A DNA stretch of 9,381 bases, taken from the IMG/VR virus record IMGVR_UViG_2675903336_000010. The stretch is one strand, 5' to 3'. The notes under the pieces were generated by a model that made no database searches, was not told where the DNA came from, and saw only the letters and a list, made by a program, of their open reading frames with translations. This document shows, one piece after another, positions 1-9,189 of the stretch (positions within the stretch are counted from its first letter, which is position 1; every line of letters begins with the position of its first letter). The translations under genes were made by a program, and so were the position numbers. The stretch is from a virus (taxonomy: Duplodnaviria; Heunggongvirae; Uroviricota; Caudoviricetes).

Positions 1-83
1 AGGGACAGCTGATAGAAACAGAAGCCACTGGAGCACCTCAAAAACACCATCATACACTAAATCAGTAAGTTGGCAGCATCACC
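1..83 (-). mobile_element. IS1 left end (partial element, runs off the window): terminal inverted repeat plus the first 9 codons of insA
   Basis: Reverse complement of 61-83 is GGTGATGCTGCCAACTTACTGAT, which I recognise as the IS1 terminal inverted repeat. Reverse complement of 1-60 continues TTAGTGTATGATGGTGTTTTTGAGGTGCTCCAGTGGCTTCTGTTTCTATCAGCTGTCCCT, matching from memory the IS1 leader and insA start (GTG at 28..26, MASVSISCP...). The match ends at 83/84. Confidence 0.8.
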
Positions 84-235
84 CCGCCACAGAACAATTA
101 TTGCTTTTGCCGTTGATGACAATAAAGTTTTTATCGCAGGCGTATACCACGGTGGGCAAATCTATGAAACCGATTTTTTATCCAGTGCACCGTAAAACCC
201 CCATCCTTCAGGGCGTGGCGGATATCAAACTTTGG

Positions 236-1318
236 TCATTTTCTCTGGCTGATCTTTACCGGATAACCATCCCGAAGATCAATTAAGTGCTCCGGTTCAG
301 AAGCAAACCATGCATAAGATCCCCACGCCAATTCTGGTATTGCCTTTTTAAAAGGCAGAGCACTTCTGTCCATAAATGCCGTAAGGAATGCAAGATTTTT
401 CTCGCTGAACCCAGCGTCAATAGCCAAATGAGTGAGAGTAACTTTTCGTTCCCTGTTTATAGGCCCATCTGTCGCAACTACTTCAGTGAAAACTACAAGC
501 ATGTCCGAACCCGTTCGGTCCTCTCCCAAATCAATCAAAATAATATCTGGAAGTGCTTTTGAGGCATCAATATTCAGCCCCAATGCTTTTGCCAATACAT
601 CATCCTGAGCAACAACTTTATTCCCGGATTCAGACAACCAGAGCACAGTTGGATTCTTAAGAAAATTAGGAGCAAAAACTTCGATGACGGCCTTAGCTAT
701 TGTACTTGACGGGCCCGGAGCTAAAGTTCTCTTCTCTCCATTTGGGAAAGTGACGACTACGGCATCAGCAGCAATCACTGCCCCTGATTTCAATAAACGC
801 AACCTAGCAAGAGCGGCTTTGTTCAAATGATTTTCTTGCCAGGAACTTATTGCACTCAGCAGCGAATCTCCTTCAAGCCCGGCATCAAAGAGTGCTGCAA
901 AAGAGCGATTCAAACTGTAACGAGGACGAGAGGATGTGGTGGGTATACCTTTACGCTCAACAATTGCATTGCAAGGTATTAGGCCATTTTTTATAGTTTC
1001 ATCACGTATTGGCTCACGCGTATTTTCCGCATACCATGCATCAGCAGGCCTTATCTTTTGTTTAGAGAAAGTCATCTTTACCCAGCTTTCTCTGGACGCA
1101 TCATCAGTAAGAGCAGCCTGCGAATCTCCCATACTTACAACCTGGCTGGGCCTTATCCATCGCCCCAGCCCCTCAACCGCACCAGCATAAAACATGACAA
1201 AAATTGTTTTTGCAGCTATTTCCCGAATTAAATATCCACGATTCTCAGTCCCTTCAGGGAAAATTAATTGTAATCTTTCCCGGATAACATTCAATGGGGG
1301 AACAACAGGCAGATTCAT
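236..1318 (-). CDS. Putative type II restriction endonuclease (partner of the adjacent methyltransferase); family not assignable by eye, possibly BsuBI/PstI-like
   Basis: 360-aa ORF whose ATG overlaps the methyltransferase stop by 4 bp (ATGA at 1315-1318), implying translational coupling. C-terminal half has a PD...E-x-x-K-like arrangement (LPDIILIDL ... VVFTEVVATDGPINRERK). Region is AT-rich like the methyltransferase gene. No sequence search possible. Confidence 0.5.
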   Translation of the reverse strand: MNLPVVPPLNVIRERLQLIFPEGTENRGYLIREIAAKTIFVMFYAGAVEGLGRWIRPSQVVSMGDSQAALTDDASRESWVKMTFSKQKIRPADAWYAENTREPIRDETIKNGLIPCNAIVERKGIPTTSSRPRYSLNRSFAALFDAGLEGDSLLSAISSWQENHLNKAALARLRLLKSGAVIAADAVVVTFPNGEKRTLAPGPSSTIAKAVIEVFAPNFLKNPTVLWLSESGNKVVAQDDVLAKALGLNIDASKALPDIILIDLGEDRTGSDMLVVFTEVVATDGPINRERKVTLTHLAIDAGFSEKNLAFLTAFMDRSALPFKKAIPELAWGSYAWFASEPEHLIDLRDGYPVKISQRK

Positions 1319-3147
1319 GCAATCATCACTCCATAGAAACCAGCGATAGTTCTCTCAATAATCCGTCTGTGGACGCCAGCATCAATTAACGATTGAATCT
1401 CCATCACCTGCTCCAGAGAAGGCAACGGGATTGAATTCAATTCATAGGCCGAAACAGCAACACTTCCGCTTATACACCTGAACGCCCGATCGACAACATG
1501 CGAATTAAGTAGCATATCAATAACATCAGGGCGAACCGCAGAGAACAATCCGTTTGAATATACAATATTAATATGGTTTTCAACTACTACGCCACCAGTT
1601 TCATCTATAAATCCCTGAGGTAAAATTGCCGCTAAAATCCTTCTGTCCTGTTCCTTCGATGTTGTCCGCTGAACAAGCACACATTCAGATTTTGTCACAA
1701 GGAAACCCTGTTGTGGGGTTATATCGATATAGGGAACATGATTTTTTCTGTCTGCACTAAAACGAAAACCAGCTGAAGTTATTGATTCCGCCCAGACTAA
1801 TGGGTAGCTATTTTTTCCTTTCGTCGTACGCAACTGCGACTTAAATCGATTCCAGACTAACTGACCTGTAGAGACTGAGTATCCCAGATCAGCTAAACGC
1901 GTAGACATCTGTTTTAATACATTAAGAAAACAGGCATCATCTTTAACGCGTGGCAAAAGCCACGTTGCTCCACCTTTTTCTATATCAACATTACCTATTT
2001 TCTCAATTTTTGCTTTGTTCAACCCCTTAGGGACAAGTGAGGATACCTGGGCCCGAACTTTATGTTCTCCCGCCTTGAATGCTGTCAACATTGTTTCCTG
2101 GAGAACATCGTCAAAGACCCCATCCCTGTCAGTGACGAAATCAAGGGCATACGGAGTAGTTTTTTCGGTCAAAAGGGTTCGCAGCGCGGTGAAATACTGC
2201 CCACCAAGAAAAGAAGTTGGCGTAAGAAATGCAATAACTCCTGTTTTCTCTTTAACCATGCGAACAGCTAAGTCGGTGAACAATCCATATAGATTTGCAT
2301 GACCAAATAACGAACGAGAATATTTTTCTCTCGTTTTAATATCGAGAGTGACACGTCCGTAAGGCGGATTCCCTACCACAAGATCATAACCAGAAAATTT
2401 ATCTTGCTGAAGCGCATCAGCAACAATAATTGTATCTTCAGGCAATCTACGTTTTACCTTTACACATAGTGGCATTAGTACAGATTCGAGCAATACCAAA
2501 CTCATCCAAGCCGCAAATGGATCGATCTCTATCCCCTTTAAACGACGACTGATTCTCCTCAACATCCATTCAGGGGAAGACCCCTTGTCTTTTTTTAACA
2601 TTCGAATGGCTACTGGTGCCAAAAATGCACCGCCACCACACGCAGGATCAATAACCGATGCATGAGAAAAATCAACACCAGACTTTTCAGCCAGGTCCAA
2701 GAGACGCGCTACCAAAGGTGGGGGGGTATAGTAAGCCCCCAATTCCGAACGGTAAGCGGATGGCAGCATTACCGTATAAATTGACCCAATCAGATATCCA
2801 GCGTCCTCCGCCGGAAATTGAGCAATAAGCTCACCTGTTCGTTCAGCGAGCTCGCGTGCATCACATGGAATGTCTTCTATGTAAACAGTGTGCGGTACTG
2901 CCCTCATTTTAATGCTGCTTTTTTGCTTTTTTGCAAGGGTATCCCAATATGCAGCTACGATGCTGAAGCAGTATGAGCGGGCATGCATCAACCTTGACTG
3001 CCCGGTTTTGTAATTGCCCGCATAACCTTTGGCCATGGCTTTACAAGTTTGATATCTTTCCAGATTAGAAAACTCATTATCTGTAAAAAAATCAAAATGT
3101 TGCACATTCATAATGTAAAATCCTAATGTATCAAACATGCGGGCCAT
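1315..3147 (-). CDS. N6-adenine DNA methyltransferase, gamma class (motif order X-I-IV), with a long C-terminal putative target-recognition region
   Basis: 610-aa ORF. Motif X GAYYTPPPLVARLL (aa 137-150), motif I VIDPACGGGAFL (aa 165-176, verified at nt 2620-2649) and motif IV VVGNPPYG (aa 257-264, NPPY verified at nt 2359-2370). About 340 aa follow motif IV. Sampled 60-nt lines are about 30-45% GC versus about 57% in the phage core. Confidence 0.85.
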   Translation of the reverse strand: MARMFDTLGFYIMNVQHFDFFTDNEFSNLERYQTCKAMAKGYAGNYKTGQSRLMHARSYCFSIVAAYWDTLAKKQKSSIKMRAVPHTVYIEDIPCDARELAERTGELIAQFPAEDAGYLIGSIYTVMLPSAYRSELGAYYTPPPLVARLLDLAEKSGVDFSHASVIDPACGGGAFLAPVAIRMLKKDKGSSPEWMLRRISRRLKGIEIDPFAAWMSLVLLESVLMPLCVKVKRRLPEDTIIVADALQQDKFSGYDLVVGNPPYGRVTLDIKTREKYSRSLFGHANLYGLFTDLAVRMVKEKTGVIAFLTPTSFLGGQYFTALRTLLTEKTTPYALDFVTDRDGVFDDVLQETMLTAFKAGEHKVRAQVSSLVPKGLNKAKIEKIGNVDIEKGGATWLLPRVKDDACFLNVLKQMSTRLADLGYSVSTGQLVWNRFKSQLRTTKGKNSYPLVWAESITSAGFRFSADRKNHVPYIDITPQQGFLVTKSECVLVQRTTSKEQDRRILAAILPQGFIDETGGVVVENHINIVYSNGLFSAVRPDVIDMLLNSHVVDRAFRCISGSVAVSAYELNSIPLPSLEQVMEIQSLIDAGVHRRIIERTIAGFYGVMIA

Positions 3148-3361
3148 AACATCTCATGGTGGCGCATAGCAAACTGGCCCGAAGAATATCACGCACCAAG
3201 TCGATCTCATAACCCGTTATGACAATAAATCTTTGTAGCTGAACTCACTTGGTGATTTGTCAATCATTCCTGGCCTCCAGTTCGTCCTGAATCTCTTTAT
3301 CGAGTTCACCGTATTTGTTAGTCCTCATCACTCACGACTTGACTTCCAGAAATAACCTTGA

Positions 3362-3718
3362 TTATTCGGGGCTATATTTTGTCACCCTGCGTATCCGCGC
3401 TTTCGCATTACGCTCAATCTGGATTAGCTTTTCTATATTTTTTCGCCTTTCCCGCTCCTCCTGGCGCAAGAGCCTTACATCATCTGCCAGTCTGGTTTCT
3501 CTTTTCGCCACAGAGAGCATCCAGTCAAATGGCTCCACAACTGCACCGCAAATTTTACAGCGGACCTGACGCTCTTTTTCGTCAACCCGGACAGAAGCGT
3601 GATGGCAATATGGTCTTTCCGATGGCTCATAAAGAAAATTAACCTGATTACGAGGGTTATCCTCTTTTACCGGAAATAAAACAATATTGCTTAACTCATC
3701 TTCTGGTTTTATTTCCAT
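3362..3718 (-). CDS. Hypothetical protein, Cys/His-containing (C-x-H-H ... C-x-x-C) with a basic/acidic C-terminal tail
   Basis: ORF track extends to 3775 (GTG), but the ATG at 3718 is preceded by a strong SD (AAGGAGAGGAG). Translation MEIKPEDEL...CHHASVRVDEKERQVRCKICGAVVEPFDW...RLLRQEERERRKNIEKLIQIERNAKARIRR. Same strand and tight spacing with upstream genes. Confidence 0.55.
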   Translation of the reverse strand: MEIKPEDELSNIVLFPVKEDNPRNQVNFLYEPSERPYCHHASVRVDEKERQVRCKICGAVVEPFDWMLSVAKRETRLADDVRLLRQEERERRKNIEKLIQIERNAKARIRRVTKYSPE

Positions 3719-5445: not shown

Positions 5446-5705
5446 NNNNNNNNNNNNNNNNNNNNNNNNNNNNNNNNNNNNNNNNNNNNNNNNNNNNNNN
5501 NNNNNNNNNNNNNNNNNNNNNNNNNNNNNNNNNNNNNNNNNNNNNNNNNNNNNNNNNNNNNNNNNNNNNNNNNNNNNNNNNNNNNNNNNNNNNNNNNNNN
5601 NNNNNNNNNNNNNNNNNNNNNNNNNNNNNNNNNNNNNNNNNNNNNNNNNNNNNNNNNNNNNNNNNNNNNNNNNNNNNNNNNNNNNNNNNNNNNNNNNNNN
5701 NNNNN
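5446..5705. other. Assembly gap (260 N)
   Basis: Uninterrupted run of n from 5446 to 5705; true length and content unknown. Confidence 1.
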
Positions 5706-6578: not shown

Positions 6579-7004
6579 TCAATGTACTGCCACAGCATTT
6601 CCTGCCGGGCCACCACGGTTCATCTGATTGAAACCGGCGATTGCCACTGCGACAAAATCATCAGCGTCTCTCACCAGTCGTTCATGCGTCTCCACCAGTT
6701 CCCGAAAATAAGCTGAACTGTGGCTGCGCATTCGAGCCACCAGCGGAGGTGGCATTGCCCTTTCGATCGCAGGTAACAACGCCTGAATTTTTTCAACAGC
6801 GTCAGGGGTGTCTTTATCCAGCCAACGGAAAATCTTTTGGGTGTTGAGATAAAGCGTGTTGTGCTTGCTGTCGTTATGCAGAACCGGAAACGTCATTCCC
6901 AGTTCGAAATAAACCCTGGTTATTTCAGCTGCCGGAACTTTTTCACCGTCCGGATGCGCCCAGGCTTTCATCGCCATGCGGATGTGTTCATGCTTGATTT
7001 TCAT
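6579..7004 (-). CDS. ydaT: YdaT-like protein (Rac-type functional analog of lambda CII)
   Basis: 141-aa ORF starting MKIKHEHI..., which I recall as the N-terminus of Rac prophage YdaT. Its ATG overlaps the upstream cro-like stop (ATGA at 7001-7004). Confidence 0.65.
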   Translation of the reverse strand: MKIKHEHIRMAMKAWAHPDGEKVPAAEITRVYFELGMTFPVLHNDSKHNTLYLNTQKIFRWLDKDTPDAVEKIQALLPAIERAMPPPLVARMRSHSSAYFRELVETHERLVRDADDFVAVAIAGFNQMNRGGPAGNAVAVH

Positions 7005-7264
7005 GAATCAACCCCCGCCGATGGTTGTGTGTTAGCCTGAAACTCAGCAGGCAAGCCGTCAGTTGGGTTGGGGTAGGTTTTACTGTCAATCTCATGTGGG
7101 GTCACCACCCATCCCGTTGCTTCACACCAACGTAATATTTTTTCTCCTGTAAGTTTTGCACGCCCCGTTATAACGTGGCTGACCATCCCTTGGGATGCGC
7201 CAACAATCTCAGCAAATGAACTCTGGGTTATATGAAAATGATGCAAATATTCTCCAAGATTCAT
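7001..7264 (-). CDS. Cro-like HTH regulator (YdaS-like, XRE family)
   Basis: ORF track start 7291 is TTG; in-frame ATG at 7264 (MNLGEYLHHFHITQSSFAEIVGASQGMVSHVITGRAKLTGEKILRWCEATGW...) has an AGGG SD upstream. HTH signature SQGMVSHVITG. Divergent from the repressor across an operator-containing intergenic region. Confidence 0.7.
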   Translation of the reverse strand: MNLGEYLHHFHITQSSFAEIVGASQGMVSHVITGRAKLTGEKILRWCEATGWVVTPHEIDSKTYPNPTDGLPAEFQANTQPSAGVDS

Positions 7265-7298
7265 AATCCGCCCTATGTGATGTGTTACCAATGCATAA

Positions 7299-7341
7299 TT
7301 AATAGCACTGTTATTTTTAAAAGTAAATAGTGATACTATTT
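7299..7341. promoter_or_regulatory. OR-like operator/promoter region: two dyad-symmetric sites (A 7301-7315 AATAGCACTGTTATT; B 7325-7341 AAATAGTGATACTATTT) with a candidate rightward promoter on the minus strand
   Basis: Site B is a perfect 7+3+7 inverted repeat and site A is near-perfect (12 of 14 paired positions); centres 25 bp apart. On the minus strand TTTACT -17 bp- TATTAA overlaps the sites upstream of the cro-like ATG. Confidence 0.55.
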
Positions 7342-7375
7342 CAAAGTGATTAGCAATCTTATTAGAATTGGATGT

Positions 7376-7876
7376 ATGAAAAGAAAATCATTGTCAGACA
7401 CCGACCTCAACGCCGCCAGAAGACTGAAAGAAATCTGGATGGCAAAGAAATCTCAGTTGGGATTGACTCAGGAACGTGCGGCGGAAATTATGGGGTTTTC
7501 AACACAAGGGGCGGTAAGTCACTACCTAAATGGTCAAACCCCACTAAACCTTGAGGCTGTTCTAAAGTTTGCTGGCTTACTGAAAGTTCCCCCTGAGTCA
7601 ATCAGGCCAGACATGGTAGATTTGCTGCAAATTGCAAGGATGTATTGTCGAGAACCACAGCAAGATAACATAGTCGCATTACCAGCAGACACAGAACAAA
7701 CAGAGGATGAACTACCGTTTGCCGTAGAGCCGATGGAACGAGATTTAATCCATACGTTCAGAGCTTTTCCGAAAGAAGATCAAGAACACATGCTTCAGGA
7801 GATGAAAGATAAAAAAGAATCAATGGATCGTACGGTTGCGCGGTGGTTAGCTGCACAAAAAGGCCGTCGCGCCTAA
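7376..7876 (+). CDS. Prophage repressor, RacR/PaaR-like XRE-family HTH protein with no LexA-like peptidase domain
   Basis: ORF track start 7346 is GTG; first ATG at 7376 (MKRKSLSDTDLNAARRLKEIWMAKKSQLGLTQERAAEIMGFSTQGAVSHYLNG...). Classic cI/XRE HTH (LTQERAAEIMGFSTQGAVSHYLNG). Divergent from the cro-like gene. C-terminal half lacks any G-x-S-M/Ser-Lys autocleavage signature. Confidence 0.75.
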   Translation: MKRKSLSDTDLNAARRLKEIWMAKKSQLGLTQERAAEIMGFSTQGAVSHYLNGQTPLNLEAVLKFAGLLKVPPESIRPDMVDLLQIARMYCREPQQDNIVALPADTEQTEDELPFAVEPMERDLIHTFRAFPKEDQEHMLQEMKDKKESMDRTVARWLAAQKGRRA

Positions 7877-7895
7877 ATCAGAGGAGATATGTAAA

Positions 7896-8090
7896 ATGAG
7901 TACAGTCCTTTCCCCAATGGTTTCAGAATTTGAGACAGTTGAGCAAGAAAATAGTTACAACGAATGGCTGCGGGCCAAAGTAGCAGCAAGCCTCGCGGAT
8001 CCCCGCCCGGCGATTCCGCATGATGAGGTAATGGCGGAAATGGAACAAATTATTGCCCAAATTGCTGCTGCAACTCACAGAGGTGAATAA
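7896..8090 (+). CDS. Small acidic antitoxin of a ParE-family type II toxin-antitoxin pair (PaaA2/ParD-like)
   Basis: 64-aa ORF with GAGGAG SD 9 nt upstream of the ATG. Stop overlaps the toxin start (TAATG at 8088-8092). Sits 19 nt downstream of the repressor stop. Confidence 0.65.
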   Translation: MSTVLSPMVSEFETVEQENSYNEWLRAKVAASLADPRPAIPHDEVMAEMEQIIAQIAAATHRGE

Positions 8091-8380
8091 TGTTACCCGT
8101 TTTATGGCTACCATCTGCTCGTGATGATTTGCGCCAGATCGTAGCCTACATAGCTAAAGAAAATCCCGCGGCAGCACGCAGAATGAAAATTCGAATTGAA
8201 ACATCCGTTTTGCCGCTCACAGAGCATCCTTACCTGTATCCTCCAAGCGAGCGAGTTCTTGGTCTTCGTGAAATTGTAACTCATCCTAACTACATCATCC
8301 TTTACCGAGTAACAGCATCAAGCATAGAAGTAGTAAATATTGTGCATTCTCGAAGACAGTATCCAGGCAAAAACAGTTAA
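8090..8380 (+). CDS. parE: ParE/RelE-superfamily toxin
   Basis: 96-aa ORF with the typical ParE pattern: MLPVLWLPSARDDLRQIVAYIAKENPAAARRM...GLREIVTHPNYIILYRVTASSIEVVNIVHSRRQYP. Translationally coupled to the upstream antitoxin. Confidence 0.8.
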   Translation: MLPVLWLPSARDDLRQIVAYIAKENPAAARRMKIRIETSVLPLTEHPYLYPPSERVLGLREIVTHPNYIILYRVTASSIEVVNIVHSRRQYPGKNS

Positions 8381-8396
8381 TTATTCCCGCCGACAG

Positions 8397-8419
8397 AACC
8401 ACCTTAGGGTGGTTTTTTC
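8397..8419 (+). terminator. Rho-independent terminator closing the repressor-antitoxin-toxin transcription unit
   Basis: 7-bp perfect stem AACCACC (8397-8403) / GGTGGTT (8408-8414), 4-nt loop TTAG, then a T-run to 8418; 17 nt after the toxin stop. The other strand has no trailing T-run, so it is unidirectional. Confidence 0.8.
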
Positions 8420-8436
8420 TTGCCCCAACAAAAAAC

Positions 8437-8480
8437 AATAGCGATGCTATTTACATCAAAAAAAATAATGATGCTATTGT
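8437..8480. promoter_or_regulatory. OL-like operator pair (D 8437-8451 AATAGCGATGCTATT; E 8464-8478 AATAATGATGCTATT) with a candidate plus-strand promoter
   Basis: Site D is a perfect 6+3+6 inverted repeat and site E a degenerate copy; centres 27 bp apart. Same AATAG-N5-CTATT consensus as the OR-like sites. TTTACA (8450-8455) and TATTGT (8475-8480) overlap the sites, though the 19-bp spacer is suboptimal. Confidence 0.5.
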
Positions 8481-8659
8481 TTCAGGCGTCAACCCACCCC
8501 GCCCCACAGAATGCAGGGCAATACTTCGAGTTACCAGACAGTGGTCAGGGGTTAAGTAGCCAGCCCGAGGCGTAAGAACATGACGGCAGGGTTCAATCTT
8601 TAACTATGCAGCAGGTTTTTTGTTCCGCCACCCCGGCGTTAAGGGGAAATGAGGTCAGC

Positions 8660-8812
8660 ATGGATACTATCGATCTTGGCAACAACGAATCTCTGGTGTG
8701 CGGCGTGTTCCCTAACCAGGATGGAACGTTTACCGCCATGACGTATACCAAAAGCAAAACGTTTAAAACCGAATCTGGCGCGCGTTGCTGGTTAGCCAGA
8801 AACACTGACTGA
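8660..8812 (+). CDS. Small hypothetical protein (50 aa), first gene of the leftward early transcript
   Basis: ATG at 8660 (MDTIDLGNNESLVCGVFPNQDGTFTAMTYTKSKTFKTESGARCWLARNTD) with GAGG SD 5 nt upstream. The longer track ORF from 8606 lacks an SD. Confidence 0.45.
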   Translation: MDTIDLGNNESLVCGVFPNQDGTFTAMTYTKSKTFKTESGARCWLARNTD

Positions 8813-8823
8813 TGAGGCTGACG

Positions 8824-9189
8824 ATGGAATTTAAAGATTTACCGTCTGATGTACAGAAAACAGCAGCTCATACATTGCATTCTGTGCTGCGAGAAATCGG
8901 GAAAGATATTGCAAGCGAGCCAGCAAAAGATCTGGCCCGGAAAATCAAGACCGCTTTCGTTGAGCTTTATAATGTTGGCACTGACTCTGAAACTGTCGAG
9001 ACCAAGACCGTAAGTTCACCAATATTCTCACTTGAGCCAAGCGTATTATCAGGTGAAATATGCACCGAGATTTCCAGCGAACTGCTTCCGGTAATACGAG
9101 AAGCAATTCGCCGTCGCGGTTTGGATGGAAGTTATGATCATGACGTTCTGCAAGTTCTCAGGACAATGGTGACTTCACTGGGGATTTGA
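8824..9189 (+). CDS. Hypothetical protein (121 aa; alternative start 8812 overlapping the upstream stop as TGATG)
   Basis: ATG at 8824 (MEFKDLPSDVQKTAAHTLHSVLREIGK...) has GAGG 7 nt upstream; the 8812 start has no SD but could be coupled. No recognisable motifs. Confidence 0.5.
   Translation: MEFKDLPSDVQKTAAHTLHSVLREIGKDIASEPAKDLARKIKTAFVELYNVGTDSETVETKTVSSPIFSLEPSVLSGEICTEISSELLPVIREAIRRRGLDGSYDHDVLQVLRTMVTSLGI

Follow-up and report, generated by a model that had tools for sequence, protein, structure and literature searches.

The window analysed here, a 9,381-nucleotide stretch of DNA from a virus of the Caudoviricetes (IMG/VR record IMGVR_UViG_2675903336_000010), contains a lambdoid prophage immunity region of the CP-933P/Qin/Rac type (Table 1). 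A repressor gene and a cro-like gene, which occupies the position of ydaS, are divergent and 111 bp apart, and both encode an HTH domain. The cro-like protein has no similarity to YdaS of CP-933P. The ydaT gene has a YdaT-box (TTGATTTTCATGAATCAA; 6994-7011) that spans its start codon and is a perfect fit to TTGATT-N6-AATCAA (PMC9986795, PMC11879457). On the opposite strand, the repressor gene, paaA2 and parE2 are directly in line, followed by a terminator that closes this operon, and the three genes are predicted to be co-transcribed. The toxin-antitoxin (TA) genes thus lie inside the lambdoid immunity region, between the repressor gene and the left operator, where lambda has its own accessory genes rexAB. 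Beyond the terminator is ydfA (DUF1391; 8660-8812), with dicB further downstream in relatives, outside this window.

Table 1. Features of the immunity region, in window coordinates; promoters and operators are predicted.
Feature	Position	Strand	Details
ydaT (CII-like)	6579-7004	-	Pfam YdaT_toxin; PDB 3c4r, 8bt1; PHROG CII-like
cro-like HTH gene (YdaS position), 87 aa	7001-7264	-	weak Pfam HTH_3; PHROG 35 transcriptional repressor, E=8e-17
PR, leftward to cro-like gene	7299-7327	-	-35 TTTACT (7327-7322), 17-bp spacer, -10 TATTAA (7304-7299)
OR1-like operator (PR-proximal)	7301-7315		AATAGCACTGTTATT, one mismatch; 4 bp overlap with PR -10
OR2-like operator	7326-7340		AATAGTGATACTATT, perfect half-sites; 2 bp overlap with PR -35; abuts PRM -35
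PRM	7340-7368	+	TTCAAA, 17-bp spacer, TAGAAT; promoter scan
Possible weak OR3-like site	7349-7363		ATTAGCAATCTTATT, two mismatches; overlaps PRM -10
Repressor gene, 166 aa	7376-7876	+	N-terminal HTH residues 2-90; C-terminal domain residues about 106-166
paaA2-like antitoxin, parE2-like toxin	7896-8090, 8090-8380	+	Pfam PaaA2, ParE_toxin; PDB 5cw7 ParE2
Intrinsic terminator, hairpin and U-run	8395-8421	+	-15.1 kcal/mol, z = -3.3; just upstream of OL/PL
OL2-like operator (PL-distal)	8437-8451		AATAGCGATGCTATT, perfect; 2 bp overlap with PL -35
PL	8450-8480	+	-35 TTTACA (8450-8455), -10 TATTGT (8475-8480)
OL1-like operator (PL-proximal)	8464-8478		AATAATGATGCTATT, one mismatch; 4 bp overlap with PL -10
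PL transcript start: 5' leader and ydfA	8487-8812	+	first gene of ydfA...dicB-type early-left operon

A preliminary description of this DNA had reported four sites that share AATAG-N5-CTATT and are arranged as two pairs, and a search of the whole window bears this out. Exact matches to AATAGNNNNNCTATT occur at 7326-7340 and 8437-8451, and allowing one mismatch adds just 7301-7315 and 8464-8478, giving four sites in total. Shuffled versions of the window contain a mean of 0.15 such sites and none of 200 reaches four. The intergenic regions, at 29% and 39% GC, are both rich in AT; when they were shuffled separately, at least two sites in both were obtained in 0 of 20,000 trials. The span 7325-7341 originally given for one site is the 7326-7340 site with one flanking base on each side. 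The two palindromes described as perfect are so in their arms, which read AAATAGT/ACTATTT around a 3-bp centre at 7325-7341 and AATAGC/GCTATT at 8437-8451. The centre-to-centre spacings are 25 bp (7308 to 7333) and 27 bp (8444 to 8471), in agreement with the range first proposed. With a position weight matrix the sites score 21.8 (7301-7315), 23.2 (7326-7340), 24.2 (8437-8451) and 19.7 bits (8464-8478), and the consensus is better given as AATAGCA-N-TGCTATT, within a 17-bp site. The motif is not dispersed through the prophage: 50 kb around a near-identical prophage in E. coli FDAARGOS_944 contain the same four sites and two isolated one-mismatch sites.

Each pair overlaps a candidate promoter, as had been suggested, with the distal site on the -35 hexamer and the proximal site on the -10 hexamer. 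PR and PL are weak matches to the consensus and were placed by reading the sequence; PR was missed by a consensus promoter scan because its -10 hexamer lacks a T at position 6. The PL spacer is a suboptimal 19 bp in the window and 17 bp in most relatives; the promoter scan does pick up the same PL hexamers in a 98% identical relative (L001), where the spacer is 17 bp and there is a TG extension. The variation arises in an A-tract, which ranges from A5 to A9 among near-identical prophages, with the -35/-10 spacer ranging from 16 to 20 bp accordingly. PR and PRM are back to back, with putative starts about 83-84 bp apart; those of lambda are 82 bp apart. The centre of the 7326-7340 site lies at about -42/-43 relative to the putative PRM start. 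The PRM -10 hexamer ends 7 nt upstream of the repressor ATG at 7376, and the repressor mRNA is therefore probably leaderless; the geometry is that of lambda cI and of paaR2 in CP-933P, for which a leaderless transcript has been demonstrated experimentally (PMC8630535).

An alignment of the PR module with the PL module runs base for base (site, TTTAC(T/A), site, TATT(AA/GT)), with about 70% identity over 45 bp. The resemblance between the sites could thus reflect duplication of an AT-rich promoter module, with PR and PL as paralogues and the palindromes having no protein-binding role, or chance; conservation of the entire control region in close relatives would fit such an origin as well. Promoter duplication, however, leaves unexplained why the two sites within each module are alike and internally palindromic, and the local shuffles argue against chance. 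Together with the comparisons with more distant elements described below, in which the motif recurs without this promoter sequence and different palindromes stand at the same places, these points make the duplication or chance explanation very improbable.

The preliminary description had also noted two sites per cluster rather than three, and the search for a third agrees with it. The only candidate, at 7349-7363, has its centre 23 bp from that of the 7326-7340 site. It scores 2.6 bits, where the four sites score 19.7-24.2, and a shuffled window has about 2.2 positions that do at least as well; a third operator on this basis was rejected, as the score is no better than chance. It is at most a possible OR3-like site and is statistically unsupported. 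Matrix and mismatch searches gave no third-site candidate near the OL pair, and the distant phage discussed below likewise has two sites per cluster.

The repressor combines a lambda-CI-like N-terminal domain with a short C-terminal domain of the DicA/PaaR2 type. Residues 2-90 match the N-terminal domain of lambda CI (PDB 1lmb, 1rio and 3bdn; E=3e-9 to 1e-8), with a basic N-terminal arm and with acidic residues of helix 2 that align with lambda E34 and D38. The recognition-helix residues differ and do not align one-to-one, and carrying over the base contacts of lambda CI to predict specificity was abandoned. The portion past the N-terminal domain is about 76 residues long and matches the C-termini of DicA and PaaR2, not an S24 peptidase. 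It is 52% identical to PaaR2 over 44 residues, which is the full extent of the PaaR2 alignment, full-length homology being absent, and it matches DicA by BLASTP with E=2e-6 over residues 112-162. The match to positions 74-130 of the NCBIfam DicA model (E=7e-8) is below the family cut-off because the C-terminal domain alone matches. Pfam gives HTH_3/HTH_31 only, with no S24 peptidase domain, which upholds the earlier statement that the protein has no LexA-like cleavage domain. Self-cleaving repressors of the LexA/CI type carry such a domain at the C-terminus, with a Ser-Lys dyad, and an Ala-Gly cleavage site in the linker.

Relatives of the repressor were collected from IMG/VR viral contigs and complete E. 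coli genomes; two scans of species-representative genomes for such relatives returned nothing. The resulting 49 related loci (repressor at least 77% identical; 283,693 bases in total) contain 194 sites with at most one mismatch, all of them at the four expected positions. The 7301-7315 site is in the same place in 47 of the 49 loci, the OR spacing is 25 bp in 47 of 47, and both OL sites are kept. Among the 33 distinct site variants the outer AATA/TATT is invariant, the adjacent G/C varies occasionally and the centre is free; at 7326-7340 the half-sites are invariant around a centre with 11 variants. Relatives that are about 80% identical also show almost no variation in the DNA between the operators, so half-site conservation in the close family cannot by itself tell operators from promoters. 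That argument is carried by one distant phage and by the mosaic comparison with CP-933P.

When 2.9 million viral contigs were scanned for the OR-pair pattern, it was found beside this repressor and cro-like gene, apart from the distant phage (L083) and six contigs with a GC content of 23-25%, whose matches look fortuitous. The repressor of L083 is 50% identical in its N-terminal domain, with a conserved helix TQG.V.HYLN, and its site pairs lie at 12/37 and 2588/2614. Its repressor has a different C-terminal domain, its neighbouring genes differ, paaA2 and parE genes are absent, and it shares the operator motif without the surrounding promoter sequence. The cro side lies beyond the end of the L083 locus, and L083 therefore ties the motif to the repressor domain only. 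This bears on the idea that the sites are autoregulatory operators of a PaaA2-ParE2 complex. Classical type II TA complexes do bind palindromes in their own promoter, and the sites here flank the TA operon. Against this, L083 has the 2+2 sites without the TA genes, one of the pairs in the window is downstream of the TA operon on another promoter, PaaA2 has no DNA-binding domain and regulation of the paaR2 system is by a third component (PMC8630535). We regard a TA origin of the sites as extremely improbable.

The closest described system is that of CP-933P, which comprises PaaR2 (CI-like), YdaS (Cro-like), YdaT (CII-like), OR and PL933P/OL (Jurenas et al., 2021; PMC8630535). The order of elements is the same (ydaT, cro-like gene, OR, repressor-paaA2-parE2, OL/PL, early-left operon), operator clusters flank the repressor operon, and the repressor lacks an S24 domain in both; PaaR2 is made from a leaderless mRNA, as is probable for the repressor here. 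Homologous parts are ydaT (79% DNA identity), the C-terminal end of the repressor, PaaA2, ParE2 and the PL leader, of which 8490-8649 is 93% identical to a stretch of CP-933P. This leader as an RNA element gave no Rfam match, a thermodynamic z of +0.77 and essentially no covariation. Only two segments are not shared: 7016-7810, which holds cro, OR and the N-terminal domain of the repressor, and 8338-8489, with the terminator and OL. The DNA-binding domain of the repressor (166 residues here, 123 in CP-933P) and the cro-like protein are unrelated in sequence between the two elements. Identity with the PaaR2 operators was likewise rejected: CP-933P has GTTTAGTAA-type repeats, for which the authors give either four inverted repeats or three operators at OR, and three operators at OL (PMC8630535), and no AATAG-N5-CTATT site was found in its locus. 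The two elements are thus predicted to be heteroimmune.

The conserved and exchanged parts also allow two further candidates for the binding protein to be weighed. YdaT could be considered, since the Rac protein binds DNA between racR and ydaS (PMC11879457). Its recognition sequence, TTGATT-N6-AATCAA, is present separately and perfectly in the box at the ydaT start, and this element and CP-933P have similar YdaT proteins but different operators; YdaT of CP-933P, moreover, does not bind the paaR2-ydaS region. YdaT was rejected as the binder of the four sites, a role that is scarcely credible. The other candidate is the cro-like protein or a further factor, which might bind mainly or alone at these sites while the 166-residue repressor recognizes something else. 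Throughout the close family the cro-like gene and the sites are inherited together (the gene accompanies the repressor in 45 viral contigs), and in CP-933P PaaR2 and YdaS footprint the same OR-equivalent region and repress PR, PRM and PL, their precise recognition sequences not having been separated (PMC8630535). In L083, however, the motif and its 2+2 arrangement go with a homologous N-terminal domain of the repressor, the CP-933P mosaic boundary swaps that domain along with both operator clusters, and the 7326-7340 site occupies the classical activator position for PRM. To our knowledge, CI and Cro share operators in every characterized lambdoid switch, which also counts against exclusive binding by the cro-like protein. 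We consider this alternative improbable, if the least so of those discussed.

Two further E. coli prophages have the same layout with other operators. In Qin (PMC10448788, PMC3441716) DicA, which is non-cleavable, has a homologous C-terminal domain, the repressor gene is divergent from a cro-like gene, and a second operator cluster precedes ydfA...dicF-dicB, as before ydfA here. In our reading of its sequence, the dicBp -35 hexamer is bracketed by two TGTTAG-type palindromes. Qin differs in having no TA genes between dicA and dicBp, another HTH domain and an operator resembling TGTTAG-N6-CTAACA, of which the literature counts three per cluster (PMC10448788, PMC3441716). Rac (RacR/YdaS/YdaT; PMC9638921, PMC11879457) shares the lambdoid layout, the YdaT-box over the ydaT start codon and the conserved PL leader. 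Its palindromic 6-3-6 operators (TTAGGC-N3-GCCTAA) lie in the racR-ydaS region, for which four RacR operators have been reported (PMC9638921, PMC11879457), and recur downstream of racR. RacR has no detectable similarity to the repressor described here, and Rac lacks the TA genes. Different palindromes thus stand at equivalent places in the heteroimmune Qin, Rac and CP-933P, and operators co-vary with the repressor DNA-binding domain between such relatives.

The likeness to lambda OR and OL noted in the preliminary description holds for the gene order and for the N-terminal domain of the repressor, and it has a precedent in PaaR2/YdaS of CP-933P (PMC8630535). As in lambda, the operators are palindromes of the 17-bp class with centres 23-25 bp apart, and an OR2-like site lies near -42 of PRM. 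The element differs from lambda in that its repressor lacks both an S24 C-terminal domain and a module for RecA-dependent cleavage, in having two recognizable sites of another sequence per cluster where lambda has OR1-3 and OL1-3, and in its OR-OL distance (1.14 kb, compared with about 2.3 kb in lambda).

Taken together, the analysis suggests, with a probability of roughly 85%, that the four sites serve as OR and OL in the immunity switch of a lambdoid prophage. Repressor dimers would bind 15-17-bp palindromes of the family consensus. At OR, the 7301-7315 site would cover the -10 and 7326-7340 the -35 of PR, which is predicted to drive the cro-like gene, ydaT and the replication genes; repressor on 7326-7340 could also stimulate its own leaderless transcript from PRM. 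At OL, 8437-8451 would cover the -35 and 8464-8478 the -10 of PL, which is predicted to drive the early-left operon. The same four sites are probably also bound by the cro-like protein, which would give a bistable switch, and with the two pairs about 1.14 kb apart the four repressor dimers on these 2+2 sites could assemble into an octamer that loops the DNA as in lambda. PaaR2 is octameric as well as leaderless and is not mitomycin-responsive (PMC8630535), and DicA is relieved by the antirepressor Rem, its spontaneous switching being RecA-independent (PMC10448788). These reports that both homologues are non-cleavable, and independent of RecA or of mitomycin, agree with the earlier suggestion that induction is probably not by RecA-stimulated autocleavage; derepression would more likely involve an antirepressor or stochastic or stress-driven switching. 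Repressor and Cro binding, PRM activation, octamer looping and the route of induction are functional steps that we infer from homology and position.

A more specific and rather doubtful reading is that of a minimal lambdoid switch, with a chimeric CI-type/DicA-PaaR2-type repressor, exactly 2+2 operators, no OR3 or OL3 and therefore no negative autoregulation, and a PL output tuned by the A-tract. If it were true, the operators would be just enough for one looped octamer, and the slippage-prone A-tract would alter the -35/-10 spacer as well as how the two OL sites are phased on the helix, additionally setting the output of PL and with it of the dicB-type cell-division-inhibitor operon.

The immunity module is present in 72 of 5,426 complete E. 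coli genomes (about 1.3%), including O104:H4 and O145:H28 strains. A marker for CP-933P alone matches 584 complete E. coli genomes, including O157:H7 strains. Identity of the repressor with PaaR1 of CP-933M was also considered; in view of these counts the module is unlikely to be a standard O157:H7 prophage allele. A repressor search of deposited phages found this immunity type in no genome: no repressor exceeds 60% identity, and the best match is lambda cI at 31%.

No new regulatory principle is involved, as the architecture, the non-cleavable repressor and the TA cargo have already been described for CP-933P, Qin and Rac, and an equivalent architecture with a different operator sequence has been shown experimentally for PaaR2/YdaS of CP-933P (PMC8630535). 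What appears to be new is the operator sequence and the immunity type, which is of the well-described lambda-like kind. The analysis defines the operator AATAGCA-N-TGCTATT and the promoter layout of an uncharacterized prophage immunity type, and the consensus allows homo-immune prophages to be predicted. It also provides a natural pair of variants for studying how DNA-binding and oligomerization domains are shuffled among lambdoid repressors: CP-933P, with the same C-terminal domain and TA cargo and a different DNA-binding domain and operators, and L083, with a related DNA-binding domain and the same operators and a different C-terminal domain.

The preliminary description had proposed four sites with the shared consensus AATAG-N5-CTATT, arranged as two pairs with centre spacings of 25-27 bp. 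A pattern search of the 9,381-base window located two exact matches (7326-7340 and 8437-8451), and allowing one mismatch over the whole window added only 7301-7315 (AATAGCACTGTTATT) and 8464-8478 (AATAATGATGCTATT). The centres are 25 bp apart in the OR pair (7301-7315 and 7326-7340) and 27 bp apart in the OL pair (8437-8451 and 8464-8478). Dinucleotide shuffles of the whole window contained a mean of 0.15 sites at one mismatch or fewer and never reached four. Because both site-bearing regions are AT-rich (29% and 39% GC), the two intergenic stretches were also shuffled separately, and two sites in both were obtained in 0 of 20,000 shuffles. The proposed consensus and its paired arrangement are thus borne out. 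A fifth site (7349-7363) appears when two mismatches are allowed. A position weight matrix made from the relatives' 33 distinct variants of the site gives the four sites 19.7-24.2 bits and 7349-7363 only 2.6 bits, a score that roughly two positions in each shuffled window also attain. With two recognisable sites in each cluster, the element departs modestly from the CP-933P, Qin, Rac and lambda systems, for which three or four are reported.

The region is the immunity region of a lambdoid prophage of the CP-933P/Qin/Rac type. The OR pair lies within the 111-bp intergenic region separating the repressor and cro-like genes, and the OL pair lies between the terminator of the operon for the repressor and the PaaA2-ParE2 toxin-antitoxin (TA) genes and ydfA, the operon of which runs on to dicB and a recE-type exonuclease in relatives. 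A perfect YdaT box, TTGATTTTCATGAATCAA (TTGATT-N6-AATCAA; 6994-7011), spans the ydaT start codon and agrees with the site reported for the YdaT of CP-933P and Rac; with this separate box of its own, YdaT is unlikely to be the protein that binds the four sites. Elsewhere in the window, the early-right region carries restriction-modification cargo (236-3147, - strand) consisting of a PstI/BsuBI-type restriction endonuclease (236-1318) and an Eco57I/N6-adenine methyltransferase (1315-3147), and a 260-base run of N (5446-5705; masked or unresolved) breaks the ORFs of the replication-gene region. A 125-aa ORF (8812-9189) follows ydfA where relatives carry ydfB and ydfC; Pfam gives no match for it, and the PHROG group that it matches, 33007, has no assigned function.

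Features surrounding the operator pairs (window coordinates; gene identities from Pfam, PHROGs, NCBIfam and PDB comparisons)
Feature	Position	Strand
YdaT (CII-like) gene	6579-7004	-
cro-like HTH gene	7001-7264	-
HTH repressor, 166 aa	7376-7876	+
PaaA2 antitoxin	7896-8090	+
ParE toxin	8090-8380	+
Hairpin terminator, end of repressor-TA operon	8395-8421	
ydfA (DUF1391)	8660-8812	+

The comparison set was drawn from complete E. coli genomes and IMG/VR viral contigs in which the repressor is at least 77% identical; with the window included it has 49 loci and 283,693 bases. Within it, every site that has one mismatch or none (194/194) occupies one of the four expected positions. The search over a full prophage that had been suggested earlier likewise revealed no dispersal of the motif: a 50-kb scan that took in all of a near-identical prophage of E. 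coli FDAARGOS_944 yielded, beyond the four sites, two isolated one-mismatch sites. This prophage (NZ_CP065613.1 635000-684999) is situated at a tRNA-Ser gene beside mtfA and is defective, with ISEc60 insertions in the portal and tail-sheath genes and frameshifts in the terminase and Q genes. The OR spacing is 25 bp in 47/47 loci. Among the 33 site variants the outer AATA/TATT are constant, the adjoining G/C occasionally changes and the inner bases are variable, with a fuller consensus of AATAGCA-N-TGCTATT. Most of the variable columns in the 80-bp control region, which is otherwise nearly invariant, are at the operator centres (7306-7310, 7331-7335 and those of related loci); one clade has TGATG at the centre of 7326-7340, and another has the reverse complement, CATCA. 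Of 5,426 complete E. coli genomes, 72 carry the module, two of them as the exact window allele. It was not found in deposited phage genomes, whose closest match to the repressor is lambda cI (31%).

The inter-operator DNA is also nearly invariant among close relatives, so conservation within the close family alone cannot separate operator from promoter function. Comparisons with the mosaic of CP-933P and with a distant phage locus do separate them. Homology to CP-933P covers the ydaT segment (6590-7015; 79%), the C-terminal end of the repressor with paaA2 (7811-8029), a parE2 segment (8211-8337) and the PL transcript leader (8490-8649; 93% identical). Exactly two segments are unshared: 7016-7810, spanning cro, OR and the N-terminal domain of the repressor, and 8338-8489, spanning the terminator and OL. 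The CP-933P locus has none of the AATAG-N5-CTATT sites; GTTTAGT-type repeats of its own stand at both operator places. The first ~110 nt of the leader are nearly invariant among heteroimmune prophages (the window element, CP-933P and Rac) with unrelated upstream operators; the leader gave no Rfam match, folding signal or covariation.

When 2.9 million viral contigs were scanned for the pattern of the OR pair, 52 stretches matched. Of these, 45 adjoin the same repressor and cro-like genes as in the window, and six, from contigs with a GC content of 23-25%, presumably match by chance. The remaining one is the distant locus L083 (IMGVR_UViG_3300005734_000009, 1-3500), where the repressor N-terminal domain is only 50% identical, the helix TQG.V.HYLN is kept, the C-terminal domain is unrelated and the neighbouring genes differ. 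Its first pair (AATAGCAATGTTATT and AATAGCAATGCTATT, 25 bp apart) is just upstream of the repressor gene and its second (AATAGCAACGGTATT and AATACCATTGCTATT, 26 bp apart) is 2.5 kb downstream, with no TA genes in between. The motif and the 2+2 layout therefore travel with the DNA-binding domain, independently of the TA genes and of the C-terminal domain. Binding by the PaaA2-ParE2 complex is unlikely, as L083 carries the sites without TA genes and PaaA2 has no DNA-binding domain. Chance or bare promoter duplication is excluded by the recurrence of the motif in L083, the internal palindrome of each site and the shuffle statistics. Binding by the cro-like protein alone is formally conceivable, but conflicts with the link of the sites to the repressor N-terminal domain.

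When each is read along its outward promoter, the PR (AATAGtatcaCTATTTACTtttaaaaAATAAcagtgCTATTAAT) and PL (AATAGcgatgCTATTTACAtcaaaa(aa)AATAAtgatgCTATTGTT) clusters align base for base. In both modules the distal perfect site overlaps the putative -35 (TTTACT or TTTACA) by 2 bp and the proximal AATAA-type site overlaps the putative -10 (TATTAA or TATTGT) by 4 bp, in line with the proposal that each pair overlaps a candidate promoter. The spacer between these hexamers is 17 bp in PR and, in most relatives, in PL; in a 98% identical relative (L001) a consensus scan flags PL as TTTACA-17-TATTGT with a TG extension. The window PL spacer is 19 bp owing to an A8 run (8458-8465) between the PL -35 and the 8464-8478 operator. 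Among near-identical relatives this run is A5, A6, A8 or A9, so that the OL centres are 24-28 bp apart and the PL spacer measures 16-20 bp; A6 alone is flagged as a consensus promoter. The variation could represent slippage-based tuning of PL or assembly noise. A promoter-like TTGACG-16-CATTAT (8465-8492, - strand), directed back into parE2, overlaps the 8464-8478 operator and is also found in L001; the region has about as many matches of this kind as chance would give.

The inferred PRM (7340-7368; TTCAAA-17-TAGAAT) is directed toward the repressor gene, and the centre of the 7326-7340 site is at about -42/-43 relative to its start. Lambda CI at OR2 activates PRM from this position, and the acidic helix-2 residues aligned with lambda E34 and D38 are kept in the repressor. 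The inferred PRM ends 7 nt before the repressor ATG, which implies that the mRNA would be leaderless, a feature that experiments have established for paaR2 and that lambda cI is also known to have (PMC8630535).

Over residues 2-90, which include a basic N-terminal arm, the repressor is homologous to the N-terminal domain of lambda CI (E=3e-9), and over its last 44-55 residues to the C-termini of PaaR2 (52% identity) and DicA. As the C-terminus alone matches, the repressor was rejected as a full-length PaaR2 homologue. Pfam detected no S24 peptidase domain in it, consistent with the LexA-like cleavage domain having been described as missing, and the element is therefore placed outside the self-cleaving CI/LexA family. 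PaaR2 is octameric, has no peptidase motif and is not mitomycin-responsive (PMC8630535); in Qin, the antirepressor Rem relieves DicA, and spontaneous DicA switching is RecA-independent (PMC10448788). The absence of S24 and the behaviour of these homologues support the earlier view that induction probably does not proceed via RecA-stimulated autocleavage.

A lambda-type switch is the best-supported reading of the four sites. Repressor dimers on both sites of each pair would occlude PR and PL, the repressor at 7326-7340 may activate PRM as well, and the cro-like protein, which is not similar to CP-933P YdaS, is a probable competitor for these sites. The two pairs are 1.14 kb apart, and four dimers bound to the 2+2 sites could assemble into an octamer that loops the DNA. 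In CP-933P, PaaR2 and YdaS both footprint the region equivalent to OR and both repress PR, PRM and PL, while low PaaR2 levels activate PRM (PMC8630535). The likeness to lambda noted in the preliminary description would lie in the OR/OL-like working of the two operator clusters. The element belongs with CP-933P, Qin and Rac among lambdoid immunity regions with short, non-cleavable repressors, but differs from PaaR2, DicA, RacR and lambda in operator specificity. It is an uncharacterised immunity specificity inside an already known architecture.
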